Below the pieces are notes generated by a model. The model was not told where the DNA came from, made no database searches, and worked only from the letters and a program-made list of their open reading frames with translations. Positions 7,102-46,960 of a stretch of DNA of 64,000 nucleotides are shown piece after piece. The stretch is from a phage: NCBI GenBank assembly GCA_024614665.1, contig GCA_024614665.1_4861.1. One strand, given 5' to 3'. Made by a program: the position numbers and the translations under genes. Positions within the stretch are counted from its first letter, which is position 1. Each line of letters begins with the position of its first letter.

Positions 7102-7152
7102 AGAAAAAAAGAACTACCTACTCCCTTGGGAGTAGGTAGGCTTTTATTTTTT
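7102..7152. terminator. bidirectional intrinsic terminator
   Basis: A-run, hairpin CTACCTACTCCC-TT-GGGAGTAGGTAGG, T-run; between convergent genes ending at 7101 and 7159. Confidence 0.7.
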
Positions 7153-7158
7153 ATCGCA

Positions 7159-8292
7159 TTATTTACCGACGATGTCGCGGACCATTGCTTTGATTGTGGC
7201 AGCAGTACGTTTCTTTTTCGGCAGCTTGCGGATTTCCGCGTACAGTTTATCCAGGTTCAGAGTTTTCTGTACCTGAGCAACAATCTGCATTTGCTCTTCG
7301 TCGATTTTCACTTCGACGGTCTGCTCCTGCATTTTGCCCAGTTCCTGAATCACACTGGCAACCGACACCGGATAAGCTGTTGATTTTGGACGTTCGATAC
7401 CGAGGGTAACAAAGATTTCGTCGTCAATAAACACATTTTCGATATCAGCCAAGTTTTCCAGAATGATTTCATCGTGGTCTTCATCTTCTGACGCATTCGG
7501 ATATGGACGTTTGTAGGTGTAATCCCACACGTCATAGCCGAGTTTATCTGCGAGTTGTACGAAACCTTCCCAGGTTACTTCGCCGGGGTTGATAGTCTGA
7601 CCACGGAAACCAGGGTTGGCCGTAAAGACTTTCACCCAGTCGATGTTTGCGATGCTGCGACACTCTTCCAGCGGCGCGTAACGATCTCCCACTTCGTCAT
7701 TGTCAGACTCTTCAACATGCTCTGCTTCACAACGCTCGAAAGTAACTGAGTGTGGTTTACCGTCACCGAAGATAACGGAGGCAGAACGCCAGTCTTCGAT
7801 AGTCCACTGGACATGAGTCAAATCAATGTAACAATGCCCAACTTTAACACGACCTCGTGGGGCACTTACTGGTTTAATCAGTTCACCTGGTTCGAAGAAG
7901 AATTCGTCAGAATGTGCAATGGCATACCAGACACCATCAACACCTTCAACGAGAATAGACCAGTTATACGGCGCATGGCAACTTTGGAAAGCTACGCCCA
8001 GCATACTTCCCCAACGGTCATCTGGCGAATATTTCAGCGGCGGTAGGTTATCAAACTGAAGAGTTTGAGAAGAAAGGCACAACTTATTACGCAGGTGCGG
8101 CAGCGGCAGATAAGCCTCCACATTGTTATCGAACAGCGCATTGTAAAGATCCGGGTTGATAACACCGGTGCCAGTGACGTGTTGTGCAATCAGAGCTTCG
8201 GAATATGCACGAAAACCTTCGTAGCTAAGCACATACGCACGGTTACGTACTACACGAGCCATATCTTCGATTACGGAAATTGGAAATTGCAT
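7159..8292 (-). CDS. hypothetical protein (about 377 aa)
   Basis: ORF track 7159..8316 begins with TTG; first ATG (MQFPISV...) at 8292 has AAGGAC upstream. Confidence 0.55.
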   Translation of the reverse strand: MQFPISVIEDMARVVRNRAYVLSYEGFRAYSEALIAQHVTGTGVINPDLYNALFDNNVEAYLPLPHLRNKLCLSSQTLQFDNLPPLKYSPDDRWGSMLGVAFQSCHAPYNWSILVEGVDGVWYAIAHSDEFFFEPGELIKPVSAPRGRVKVGHCYIDLTHVQWTIEDWRSASVIFGDGKPHSVTFERCEAEHVEESDNDEVGDRYAPLEECRSIANIDWVKVFTANPGFRGQTINPGEVTWEGFVQLADKLGYDVWDYTYKRPYPNASEDEDHDEIILENLADIENVFIDDEIFVTLGIERPKSTAYPVSVASVIQELGKMQEQTVEVKIDEEQMQIVAQVQKTLNLDKLYAEIRKLPKKKRTAATIKAMVRDIVGK

Positions 8293-8351
8293 GTTAATAG
8301 TCCTTATAAAAGTCAATGGTATTTTCAGATGATTAGTTACTGCTGTAAAAA

Positions 8352-8618
8352 CTAGTTACGGTCGGAATTAAAGACGTGCCAGGTACTACGCCAGCGAAAG
8401 AATCGGGTCATGAAACCACGCACGTGGTAGCCTGAGAACAACATCCAGATCGTGAGAAAAAGCTGCGCCCATGGAGTGGTGAGTTCCATCAAATGTGCGA
8501 CTATCGCACCAACTATCAACATTACCGTGGAGAATAACAAACCATACATCATCGGAATGTTGTGGCTATAGTGTTTCTCCATCCAGTAGAGAAAATTTAT
8601 TAAACGTTTCACGAACAC
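8352..8618 (-). CDS. small membrane protein (2 predicted TM segments), start uncertain
   Basis: hydrophobic stretches LLFSTVMLIVGAIVAHLM and LFLTIWMLFSGY; no convincing RBS for any candidate start. Confidence 0.35.
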   Translation of the reverse strand: MFVKRLINFLYWMEKHYSHNIPMMYGLLFSTVMLIVGAIVAHLMELTTPWAQLFLTIWMLFSGYHVRGFMTRFFRWRSTWHVFNSDRN

Positions 8619-8619
8619 A

Positions 8620-8668
8620 CATCCAAGAATTAAATAAAAGGTGGTCAGACCCGAAGGTCTGACCGTTA
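8620..8668 (-). terminator. intrinsic terminator
   Basis: hairpin GGTCAGACC-CGAA-GGTCTGACC with T-run on the minus strand after 8670..9263. Confidence 0.55.
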
Positions 8669-8669
8669 A

Positions 8670-9263
8670 TTACGCATCGGCCTCAAAGAACGGCTGGTTT
8701 GGTACCACTGCGTATTCGAGCACGAACAGATGTTCTGGGGCATCTTCTGCTCGCCACAGTTTGTGACACGTTGCCAGTTTTTCCAGGATGGTCAGCCAGC
8801 TGAGTTGGCAAAACGCACGATCGCCGAAGAACAGTTTCTGCAGTGCAATTGACACATCCATATACGCCTGTTTGAAGTCGAGCCCTTTATCGTAACCTGC
8901 CGACTGTCGCCAGGTCAGCACGAAACCTGCTTCGGTTTCGTTAATTGCTGGACGTAAACCACAAATCCACATCAGTGCCAGATTAACGTTCCAGTCGAAT
9001 TCGATACCTTCGTCTTCGTCATCACCAAACGCCGCGTTTAACGCGTCGTAGAAACCGTGGTTCTCTGCGAACCATTCGCCGTACTCAACGTAGACCGGTG
9101 CTTCGACAGCCTCCCCATCGACTTCACCGATAGGGCGCTCTACATAGTTCGGGTTGGTTTGAACGTGTTCCGCACCCGCGCGAATCAGTTCGTAGACATC
9201 TTTGGCGGTGATTTGTGCGGCTGTTTTAAGACCTGGATACCAGGGGCGTGTTACGAGTGTCAA
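8670..9263 (-). CDS. hypothetical protein (197 aa)
   Basis: ORF track; TTG start with AGGAG RBS, overlapping the stop of the upstream gene. Confidence 0.5.
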   Translation of the reverse strand: MTLVTRPWYPGLKTAAQITAKDVYELIRAGAEHVQTNPNYVERPIGEVDGEAVEAPVYVEYGEWFAENHGFYDALNAAFGDDEDEGIEFDWNVNLALMWICGLRPAINETEAGFVLTWRQSAGYDKGLDFKQAYMDVSIALQKLFFGDRAFCQLSWLTILEKLATCHKLWRAEDAPEHLFVLEYAVVPNQPFFEADA

Positions 9264-45685: not shown

Positions 45686-45687
45686 GC

Positions 45688-45745
45688 AAAGAAAATAAAG
45701 GCCCTACCTCCCTTCGGGGAGGTAGGTACCTTATTTTATTTCTTA
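45688..45745. terminator. bidirectional intrinsic terminator closing the radical-SAM cluster
   Basis: A-rich run, hairpin CCTACCTCCC-TTCG-GGGAGGTAGG, T-rich run; between convergent genes ending 45685 and 45766. Confidence 0.7.
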
Positions 45746-45765
45746 GAAACTACTAAGTTGTTTTG

Positions 45766-46293
45766 TTAAACGAATCCGTCCAGTTCACCGTTGGTGGTGC
45801 TCAGGTCAGTTTTAACGATTGGCTGCGTTACAGTATAAACTGCAGGGCTGCCAGGTCGGTATTTAATGTGGCCTGATTTCACCTTAACAGTGATGACTTT
45901 CTCACCACTGCTGCCGTCCACGCGTTTAATGATGAGTTCAGACAATGCAAACGCATCTTCCGTTTTACCGGCGGCAATTAGATCTGCGTTGACAAAAGCA
46001 AGCACTTCTTCATCGGTATCCCATTCTGCCTGGTCAGCGGTAACTGCCTTCTCACCGATGATGTCCGATAAATTGAGGCGGGTATAATGCAGCTCTTTCA
46101 CGCCAGTAAAGTTAGCGGATTCCGCGGTGGCGGTGATGGTGAGATTGGTGTTGCGAGTGTCTCCAGAATCTGCTGGTGAATAGTCAGCAACAGCGCCGAA
46201 TGTAACGTCAGCAGCAGTTAACGGACTAGGCAGTCCGCTGTTTGCAGCATTAAACAGCGCGACGAGTTGGTCTTTTGCAGAGATGACTGCCAT
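45766..46293 (-). CDS. short family-A paralog (175 aa)
   Basis: AAGGAAA RBS; LHYTRLNLSDI motif and C-terminal TNGELDGFV shared with long family-A proteins. Confidence 0.6.
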   Translation of the reverse strand: MAVISAKDQLVALFNAANSGLPSPLTAADVTFGAVADYSPADSGDTRNTNLTITATAESANFTGVKELHYTRLNLSDIIGEKAVTADQAEWDTDEEVLAFVNADLIAAGKTEDAFALSELIIKRVDGSSGEKVITVKVKSGHIKYRPGSPAVYTVTQPIVKTDLSTTNGELDGFV

Positions 46294-46420
46294 GGTTGTT
46301 TCCTTATAGTAGGTTTGTGGTGCATACTAAATCGTTCTAAAAAAAATACATAGTGGGCTTAATATGACAGTAAAGTTGACTGTTAAACGAGAAAATTATT
46401 TACCACTGAAAGGATACCTT

Positions 46421-46912
46421 ATGAAACGTCTATTTATCGTATTCGCGATTATAAACCTGTTGGCCGGTTGTGTTCAGTCGCCAAGCAACATAGGGCAATT
46501 TAGCGCCACACCGGTAAAGAATCACGACTTGGTGATTTATACATGCACAGGGACGCAGGAGAAGTTTGTAGACTACCGTCCGGTTCTGGACAACCTACAA
46601 ATGATGCCGCGGTCAGTAACAGTATTGGATGTGGGTGCAAACTGGGTAGCAACGTGGGACGGCGGCAAACTAGAGTCGCCGATGATGTTTAAAGACATGA
46701 TCGGCAAAATCGACGGGAATGTTAACACCACCACGGGCGAGCGTTATTACCGTATTAATAAAACCGTAAACGATGGCCCCACTTATTCTTTTTCGGATGT
46801 GAACCCGCATACCGGGGAAGGTAAAGGGATGACGTTCTTTCGCTGCAATGGCGGCCTTATTGACGAAGTTCCTACCCCGATTACGATTGTTCCGTTAGAA
46901 GAAAATAAATAG
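46421..46912 (+). CDS. lipoprotein (about 163 aa)
   Basis: ORF track 46364..46912; ATG (MKRLFIVFAIINLLAGC) with AAAGGA RBS; lipobox LAGC; followed by intrinsic terminator. Confidence 0.6.
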   Translation: MKRLFIVFAIINLLAGCVQSPSNIGQFSATPVKNHDLVIYTCTGTQEKFVDYRPVLDNLQMMPRSVTVLDVGANWVATWDGGKLESPMMFKDMIGKIDGNVNTTTGERYYRINKTVNDGPTYSFSDVNPHTGEGKGMTFFRCNGGLIDEVPTPITIVPLEENK

Positions 46913-46915
46913 TGC

Positions 46916-46960
46916 TTACCCACTCCCGTAAGGGGAGTGGGTAAGGGCTTTATTTACCCT
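46916..46960 (+). terminator. intrinsic terminator after lipoprotein gene
   Basis: hairpin CTTACCCACTCCC-GTAAG-GGGAGTGGGTAAG followed by GGCTTTATTT. Confidence 0.65.

Follow-up and report, generated by a model that had tools for sequence, protein, structure and literature searches.

Judged from their sequence, the hairpins described here are probably intrinsic terminators of the phiKZ type, mostly bidirectional, in the version of the SPN3US lineage. Their stems form several related sub-families within one design rule: a C-rich, G-free 5' arm, a G-rich 3' arm and TAC words. The window, that is the whole stretch of 64,000 nucleotides of phage DNA analysed, is 97-99% identical to SaP7 and SPN3US and is therefore assigned to an SPN3US-like jumbo Salmonella phage. 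In SPN3US, "RNA polymerase beta subunit" is the annotation of several split genes, and by this identity and annotation the source is a phiKZ-related phage with multisubunit RNA polymerases of its own. The SPN3US protein gp244 is described as a diverged chimallin (PMC9365700); a chimallin of SPN3US was not detected by BLASTP, PHROGs or Pfam, and the assignment is the published one.

An earlier note on this DNA listed four near-identical hairpins, and all of them are present in the sequence with perfect stems of 10-13 bp:

7114-7139, both strands: putative two-way terminator hairpin CTACCTACTCC-cttg-GGAGTAGGTAG, perfect 11-bp stem, loop CTTG, folding energy by strand -21.9 and -21.5 kcal/mol; flanked by the convergent genes 6478-7101 (+) and 7159-8316 (-)
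24496-24520: putative terminator hairpin ACCCTACTCCC-aac-GGGAGTAGGGT, perfect 11-bp stem, loop AAC; convergent genes 24257-24466 (+, 69 aa) and 24528-25790 (-) on either side
45703-45726, both strands: putative two-way terminator hairpin CCTACCTCCC-ttcg-GGGAGGTAGG, perfect 10-bp stem, loop TTCG, folding energy by strand -24.1 and -26.3 kcal/mol; flanked by the convergent genes 45014-45685 (+) and 45766-46293 (-)
46915-46945, both strands: putative two-way terminator hairpin CTTACCCACTCCC-gtaag-GGGAGTGGGTAAG, perfect 13-bp stem, loop GTAAG, folding energy by strand -31.7 and -26.3 kcal/mol; flanked by the convergent genes 46364-46912 (+) and 47038-47553 (-)

The four sites had been located correctly to within 2 nt (45705-45728 is in fact 45703-45726, and 46916-46946 is 46915-46945). 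The A- and T-runs described beside each hairpin were found at all four, with the A-rich and the T-rich run on opposite sides of the stem; at 7114-7139 these are an A-run at 7104-7113 and a T-rich tail at 7140-7155. Three of the four had been placed between convergent genes. The number is four of four, because the 69-aa ORF 24257-24466 (+) faces 24528-25790 (-). None of the four 5' arms contains a G.

RNA folding of both strands gave energies of -21.5 to -31.7 kcal/mol (z -4.3 to -6.3) for the four hairpins, and none of 200 shuffles folded as well. The terminator scan called three of the four on both strands. Symmetric stems and tails on both strands, as seen by folding and by the terminator scan, are consistent with the proposed action in both directions. 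Termination on the minus strand at 24496-24520 looks weaker, because there the U-tract begins 9 nt past the stem. The loops had been contrasted with the TTCG and CGAA loops of other terminators, which holds in part; the hairpin at 45703 itself has a TTCG loop. TTAT is found in the tail in six of the eight strand directions. As a diagnostic mark this tail was dropped, as it does not discriminate: it is present in 32 of 54 SPN3US tails, and the E. coli sample has it just as often (5 of 10).

The four hairpins are not a closed set. Of the other hairpins in the window, two fall into this G-free class and a third is related:

4035-4058, tandem junction of minus-strand genes: G-free class member CCCTCTTACC-cgaa-GGTAAGAGGG
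49121-49142, minus strand (sequence read on minus), downstream of the minus-strand gene 49189-51366: G-free class member CCTCTTCCC-cacg-GGGAAGAGG, then CTTTCTTTTT
19486-19512, minus strand, tandem junction of minus-strand genes: related putative long-stem terminator CTCCAGTAACC-N5-GGTTACTGGAG, whose 5' arm has a single G

Rfam at gathering thresholds gave no match in the window.

The placement of such hairpins was followed through the whole SPN3US genome. Strong hairpins are found at 15 of 18 convergent and 33 of 227 tandem junctions and at none of the 18 divergent ones, and 57 of 100 lie in the intergenic 6% of the genome. The stem follows the stop codon at a median of 12 nt. The hairpins thus share with phiKZ-type terminators their place at the 3' ends of genes and the occurrence of bidirectional copies where genes converge, and a motif scattered without relation to gene ends, which would have spoken against the earlier note, is not what is seen. 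The junction census supports its suggestion that terminator-type hairpins mark the boundaries of putative transcription units. The regular expression proposed there for a genome-wide motif search is too narrow, with a single match in 240 kb.

The arms of these hairpins are polarised. In the intergenic 5' arms of SPN3US the C:G ratio is 210:88, compared to 65:71 for hairpins inside genes, and per hairpin C exceeds G in 38 and G exceeds C in 12 (p=3e-4). The same polarity is seen in phiKZ, with C:G of 77:27 in the 5' arms of a 50-kb census and 13 hairpins with more C against two with more G. G-free 5' arms make up 22 of 54 in SPN3US (22/54, 10/29 and 3/17 in three jumbo phages). Under the same criteria none of 22 E. 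coli hairpins and none of six T4 hairpins has such an arm, in control samples that are small (100 kb and 50 kb); polarity is absent from the E. coli hairpins (11:11) and opposite in the T4 hairpins, whose 5' arms are purine-rich (C:G 9:16). The arms also carry a specific word: TAC occurs 25 times where 7.1 are expected, and TAC and TACC are 3.5- to 5-fold enriched over shuffled arms. The commonest loops in SPN3US are TTCG or CGAA closed by C-G (20 of 51).

Do the stems resemble each other merely as G+C-rich stems will by chance? The pattern CTCCC-N2-7-GGGAG occurs five times in the window against 0.27 expected, and eight times in the SPN3US genome, seven of them intergenic. The fifth occurrence in the window (6032-6047) lies within a gene, has a stem of 5 bp and was regarded as a chance match. 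Exact reuse of stems is above composition-matched nulls: five pairs of stems share at least 10 nt, with 0.05-0.45 expected, and even an over-fitted position-specific null leaves P=0.002; seven pairs share at least 9 nt, against 0.03-0.46 under three nulls and 2.0 under the over-fitted one. Only similarities of 7-8 nt between polarised arms fall within the position-specific null. Since polarity and position are also strongly non-random, chance resemblance is refuted by the tests of reuse, polarity and position, and we give it next to no probability. The likeness claimed in the earlier note is therefore beyond chance. Stem reuse of at least 10 nt and the enrichment of TAC exceed what a plain requirement for stability would predict.

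Stems are kept at the orthologous junctions of Erwinia phages, at protein identities of 50-80%, while loops differ and changes within stems are compensatory. Such conservation of individual stems across genera is not mentioned in the available parts of PMC10914365 and PMC11512511. Between SPN3US and the Erwinia phage phiEaH2 stems are identical at 11/11 and 11/12 positions with differing loops, the 11/11 case being the stem of 7114-7139. At the junction orthologous to 24496-24520 a G-free 5' arm and a CCTAC core are present in 10 of 10 relatives (63-100% protein identity), the loops are free and four of 11 pairs have changed in a compensatory way. The TACCCACTCC core of 46915 is kept in pEa_SNUABM_29 and phiEaH2, and other relatives have TACCCTACTCC or TACCCTCCTGC at that junction. 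At the 45703 junction the relatives carry other stems of the same design, CCTCTCTACC and GACCTACTACC; a neighbouring paralogous gene was gained or lost there, and this junction borders an array of paralogues with one, two or three copies depending on the phage. Sub-families interconvert, with CCCACTCC and CCCTACTCC found at one orthologous site, and some orthologous junctions have quite different stems. The junction alignment was masked for loops, because with loops of differing length MAFFT mis-registered one arm. For three neighbouring genes, searches for relatives that started from their proteins gave SPN3US itself only.

The earlier note took the reuse of one stem as a sign of an element that may be recombinogenic or recognised by a protein. 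Several sub-families are found instead of one stem, and orthologous sites show compensatory changes, so neither reading follows.

Concerning the first reading, the hairpins could be a repeat family whose copies arose by gene conversion or recombination between terminators, or as a REP/MITE-like mobile palindrome, and could shuffle gene cassettes in the manner of T4-type promoter-stem-loop cassettes (PeSLs). Identical copies of stem plus loop, 24-27 nt long, are indeed found at unrelated junctions (CCCTCTTACC-ttcg three times, TACCCACTCCC-gtaag twice), and for reuse of at least 10 nt P=0.002 as given above. The hairpin 4035-4058 is one of three identical 24-nt copies in SPN3US (67345, 94154 and 180981), whose flanks are unrelated. 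A near-copy of 46915-46945, TACCCACTCCC-gtaag, is located at an unrelated SPN3US junction (coordinate 186744), and the two TACCCACTCCC-gtaag copies have an upstream 10-mer in common. In pEa_SNUABM_29 the hairpin at the 45703-equivalent junction, next to the paralogue array, is identical to the one at a different SPN3US junction, 41184, including the CTAG loop and part of the flanks. However, the flanks of identical copies are otherwise unrelated beyond A/T runs, the elements are the 24-31 nt hairpin alone, always single and at gene 3' ends, and similarities of up to 8 nt are accounted for by the common design. We saw neither target-site duplications nor clustered or paired arrays nor conservation beyond the stem, as REP or MITE elements would have, and none of the 264 SPN3US proteins is labelled as a transposase in the annotation tables. 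Most stems are found at the same orthologous junction in different genera, so copying, if there was any, was rare and old. A repeat family of this kind is very unlikely; the support for copying between junctions is circumstantial, and neither copying nor protein recognition is required.

The second reading is that the stems are a sequence-specific signal for a phage-encoded factor in termination or anti-termination, in protection of RNA 3' ends or in export of mRNA from the phage nucleus, the resemblance to terminators being secondary. Retention of the stem sequence in phiEaH2 under differing loops and the enrichment of TAC and TACC are in line with it, and so are more distant jumbo phages. 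The stem CCTACTCCC-loop-GGGAGTAGG was found at 43 IMG/VR loci, of which 27 are on contigs of at least 200 kb; among these loci are RisingSun and RSF1, where the neighbouring proteins are only 21-27% identical to SPN3US. A permuted control gave seven loci and an arm-swapped control 51, with none and two, respectively, on such contigs; the arm-swapped loci are a different and redundant set of small low-GC contigs, so the raw counts of 51 and 43 are not comparable and the distribution over contig types alone is informative. In the more distant phages hairpins with the same core are often without a clear T-tail. Against a dedicated factor speak the lack of a single conserved sequence, as sub-families coexist and interconvert, further the compensatory pair changes, the unconstrained loops and the quite different stems at some orthologous junctions. 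No candidate binding protein was identified. In 201phi2-1, eight of eight tested terminators were active in vivo, and terminators with the analogous motifs also function without infection, so that a phage factor is not needed there (Poppeliers et al. 2024, PMC11512511). We consider a sequence signal of this kind quite unlikely.

A combination of both is unlikely as well, namely that the G-free TAC stem is more than a stable hairpin, being a sequence-specific signal common to phiKZ-like phages that form a nucleus and infect Salmonella, Erwinia and Ralstonia, together with occasional copying of terminators during cassette turnover. If it were true, the reader of the signal would be the phage RNA polymerase or an RNA-binding protein acting in termination, in 3'-end protection or in the handling of mRNA that leaves the nucleus.

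On the preferred reading as intrinsic terminators, the nascent RNA would fold into a very stable stem of 10-13 bp, the U-rich stretch behind it would weaken the RNA-DNA hybrid, and the polymerase would release the transcript. Transcripts of either strand would get the same hairpin and U-tail, because the palindrome is perfect and lies between an A-run and a T-run. The polymerases stopped are likely the phage's own split multisubunit enzymes, by analogy to phiKZ. The stems would look alike because the phage clade builds its terminators to one design, in which a C-rich G-free 5' arm, often with TAC, is followed by a short loop, frequently UUCG, that C-G pairs close, then by a G-rich 3' arm and a CTTTATTT-type tail. 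Individual stems have probably been held at their junctions by purifying selection with compensatory changes from a time before the phage genera of Salmonella and Erwinia diverged.

How transcription is ended by the split RNA polymerases of phiKZ-like phages is, to our knowledge, poorly understood. The design gives a simple rule for annotating the putative ends of transcription units in these genomes, and such compact two-way terminators could serve as insulators.

Bidirectional intrinsic terminators of bacteria have a symmetric hairpin with an A-tract and a T-tract, lie between convergent genes and stop both transcripts. The hairpins described here share all of these features of structure and position, whereas the 22 E. 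coli hairpins sampled lack the polarity and the G-free arms. Hairpins with C(UUCG)G tetraloops are known from the intercistronic regions of phage T4, and the loops that are commonest here are of that kind; the six T4 hairpins sampled differ by their opposite polarity. REP/BIME palindromes and PeSLs, which are proposed to mediate recombination, are likewise short repeated palindromes at gene ends, often between convergent genes. In contrast to them, the hairpins of SPN3US show no sequence conservation beyond the hairpin and no clusters, and the copies are mostly inherited in place; no conserved sequence adjoins them as in a PeSL, and one hairpin-bounded segment varies in gene number among the relatives.

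The closest likeness is to phiKZ and 201phi2-1. Literature searches gave no relevant description of terminators in SPN3US or Erwinia jumbo phages, and full-text searches for the stem strings gave unrelated primer-type matches only. In phiKZ, 61 terminators determined by ONT-cappable-seq share the motif BCCYCCCCHWWDGGGRRGGBYTTATKYYGT, and six of the mapped terminators are bidirectional and lie between convergent genes (Putzeys et al. 2024, PMC10914365). In 201phi2-1, 132 3' ends were mapped, 15 sites are bidirectional, and the main motif (motif A) resembles that of phiKZ (PMC11512511). The literal phiKZ consensus, BCCYCCCCHWWDGGGRRGGBYTTAT(KYYGT), has no match in the window with up to three mismatches, because the stems of the window, with 10-13 bp, exceed the roughly 7 bp of phiKZ and contain TAC; the architecture is the same and the sequence is different. 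These related jumbo phages with split multisubunit RNA polymerases of their own share with SPN3US the stable hairpin with a C- or pyrimidine-rich 5' arm and a G- or purine-rich 3' arm, the short loop that is often TTCG, the T-rich tail, with TTAT as a feature that does not discriminate, the intergenic location at gene 3' ends and the bidirectional sites between convergent genes. The conserved motif was already known there, and the hairpins of the window are not a new element; they extend the polarised terminator design of two Pseudomonas phages to the Salmonella and Erwinia lineage, where the arms have, beyond the polarity of C over G, an A inside TAC words and the stems form recurring sub-families.

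All four look-alike hairpins described in the earlier note are present, with coordinates that had been wrong by at most 2 nt. Three of them had been placed between convergent genes; if the 69-aa ORF at 24257-24466 is counted, which is gp094 in the SPN3US annotation, all four lie at such junctions.

The four hairpins of the window
Hairpin 1, 7114-7139, convergent-gene junction
Hairpin 2, 24496-24520, convergent-gene junction
Hairpin 3, 45703-45726, convergent-gene junction
Hairpin 4, 46915-46945, convergent-gene junction

The stems are perfect (10-13 bp, loops of 3-5 nt), and RNA folding gives -21.5 to -31.7 kcal/mol on either strand, a stability reached by none of 200 shuffles. 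A terminator scan of the window called three of the four on both strands, and CTCCC-N2-7-GGGAG occurs five times in the window, with 0.27 expected. The four-hairpin finding is real and non-random. Hairpins without G in the 5' arm (the G-free class) number six in the window, namely these four, 4035-4058 and 49121-49142. The contrast drawn earlier with the other terminators has some basis only: a second class, with short stems of mixed composition and TTCG loops, does exist.

A 3-kb piece of the window matches Salmonella phage SaP7 at 98.7% identity and SPN3US at 97.5%. SPN3US is a phiKZ-related jumbo phage of 240 kb whose annotation lists several split genes for RNA polymerase beta subunits; the counterpart of the window is its minus strand at about 121-185 kb. 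The genome-wide test was made on the assembled SPN3US genome (264 annotated genes). There the perfect hairpins whose stem is at least 8 bp long number 100, and 57 of these are intergenic, though intergenic sequence makes up 6% of the genome. Strong hairpins are found at 15 of 18 convergent, 33 of 227 tandem and none of 18 divergent junctions, starting at a median of 12 nt from the stop codon. This distribution and the intergenic bias therefore tie the elements to gene 3' ends and not to random positions, as the terminator reading predicts. CTCCC...GGGAG occurs eight times, seven of them intergenic; the exact regular expression of the earlier note has a single match. Termination at these hairpins, as well as the identity of the polymerase stopped there, we infer.

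In the SPN3US genome pieces L001-L006 the stem starts at most 10 nt past the stop codon in 29 of 65 terminators, a spacing at which a terminating ribosome could cover the 5' arm. This would be easier to tolerate if a phage nucleus separates transcription and translation. SPN3US gp244 is described as a diverged chimallin, the nuclear-shell protein (PMC9365700), an assignment not reproduced by BLASTP, PHROGs or Pfam. Going by how SPN3US is annotated, proteins encoded in the window include an SMC/SbcC-like protein, a ribonuclease and a 3'-5' exoribonuclease (13118-15628 (-) and 1743-3976 (-)); RNases of the phage's own could partly explain why 3' hairpins are so stable.

The stems follow a design with a C-rich 5' arm. 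In SPN3US, C and G number 210 versus 88 in the 5' arms of intergenic hairpins, and 65 versus 71 in those within genes. With an annotation-free definition (stem of at least 7 bp plus T-rich tail), C exceeds G in 38 SPN3US hairpins and G exceeds C in 12 (p=3e-4), while 22 of 54 5' arms are G-free. The corresponding ratios are 13:2 in phiKZ, 11:11 in 100 kb of E. coli (G-free arms 0/22) and 1:4 in 50 kb of T4 (0/6). Since a perfect hairpin has the identical 5' arm on both strands, the polarity holds for transcripts either way. Unlike SPN3US and phiKZ, phiEaH2 gives 14:14, because its terminators (L135, L008, L136) form two clear classes, long G-free stems (10/29) and a short 8-bp xGGAGACC-ttcg type whose 5' arms are rich in purines. 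The loop-closing base is C in 82% of hairpins, and 20 of 51 loops are TTCG or CGAA. The arms are also rich in the word TAC (25 observed, 7.1 expected, z=7.4) and in TACC (17, 3.5 expected). A hairpin of reversed polarity, GGGAGGAG-gagatc-CTCCTCCC, separates two genes for virion structural proteins (62286-62307, minus-strand transcript); its T-run begins only 12 nt later and is followed by the GAGGAGG ribosome-binding site of the next gene. Possible roles are weak internal termination or an effect on RNA stability.

The single reused stem of the earlier note proved to be a general design rule with several sub-families, within which reuse is real for the longer matches. Sharing of up to 8 nt is accounted for by the design. 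Five arm pairs share at least 10 nt, with 0.05 (arm-shuffle), 0.04 (Markov) and 0.01 (loop-anchored profile) expected, and 0.45 under a deliberately over-fitted position-specific Markov null (P=0.002). Flanking sequence beyond the hairpin is unrelated.

Stem sub-families
CCCTCTTACC-ttcg, 3 identical copies
CCTAC(T/C)..CC, 6
ACCCACTCC, 3
CTCTCC group, 8

Relatives were identified via the neighbouring protein, not the motif, and all of them keep a G-free hairpin 3' of the gp095 homologue. Its stem is ACCCTACTCCC at 100% protein identity, CTCCTACTCCC at 79-81%, CTCCTACCCTC at 76-77% and CCTACTCCCC at 63-64%; the loops vary freely. In a loop-masked alignment, which holds four distinct sequences only, 4 of 11 pairs changed on both sides and none on one side; slid controls gave 0. 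The stop codon of the homologue is always TAA within AAATAA (window 24520-24535, minus strand; loci L055-L064, just after 1860). The complement, TTATTT, belongs to the opposite-direction U-tail, so that stop and reverse tail share bases; the 'TTAT' signature of convergent junctions may in part come from this overlap.

The stem 3' of the gp108 homologue is CTTACCCACTCCC in the window phage and TACCCACTCC, TACCCTACTCC or TACCCTCCTGC in relatives; in TACCCTACTCC one extra base pair converts one sub-family into another, and the most distant relatives have a stem of reversed polarity or none. In the 132 kb of phiEaH2 compared, most stems are unchanged at their own junction while the loops differ: the 7114-site stem is identical in 11 of 11 bases, and at three further junctions 11, 10 and 9 bases are shared. 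At a few junctions the stem is another one that follows the design. One such replacement stem adjoins a paralogue array (1, 2 or 3 copies) and is identical, loop included, to an SPN3US terminator of a different junction. The array segment, between two neighbouring terminators, holds one gene in the window (45766-46912), two in phiEaH2 (L008 21264-23027) and three in pEa_SNUABM_29 (L007 21241-23615), with 24-65% identity among copies; it is the terminator beside the variable end that has different stems in different phages.

Simple stability does not predict so many exact copies, the TAC word or stem sequences retained over such evolutionary distances; these three features leave modest room for two other explanations. 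That a phage factor reads the stems as a sequence-specific signal is unlikely; that terminators are occasionally copied between junctions as a repeat family is very unlikely.

In IMG/VR, CCTACTCCC-N3-6-GGGAGTAGG has 43 loci, 27 on contigs of at least 200 kb, and a permuted control 7, none on such contigs. Erwinia phage RisingSun holds four copies and Ralstonia phage RSF1 two, next to proteins only 21-27% identical to those of SPN3US; these stems are longer and often miss a clear T-tail. The arm-swapped control has 51 loci, only two on contigs of at least 200 kb, and most are redundant small low-GC contigs. These swapped arms, GGGAGTAGG-loop-CCTACTCCC followed by T-runs (L077-L127), occur on many small viral contigs of 32-38% GC. 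Their large excess over the permuted control may mean that two unrelated groups of phages favour this pairing, with opposite polarities, or may simply reflect redundant sampling of a few loci.

A literature search on terminators of SPN3US-like phages or Erwinia relatives found no description. For phiKZ, ONT-cappable-seq (PMC10914365) gives 133 termination regions, six of them bidirectional between convergent genes, and 61 predicted intrinsic terminators with the common motif BCCYCCCCHWWDGGGRRGGBYTTATKYYGT. For 201phi2-1 (PMC11512511), the 3' ends mapped number 132 and show five motifs, of which the main one is similar to that of phiKZ; fifteen sites are bidirectional, and 8/8 tested terminators were active in an uninfected Pseudomonas host. 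The hairpins described here have the same architecture as the terminators of both phages, although the literal phiKZ consensus has no match. Most probably they represent the form that the conserved intrinsic terminator of the phiKZ type takes in the SPN3US lineage, here in its bidirectional use.
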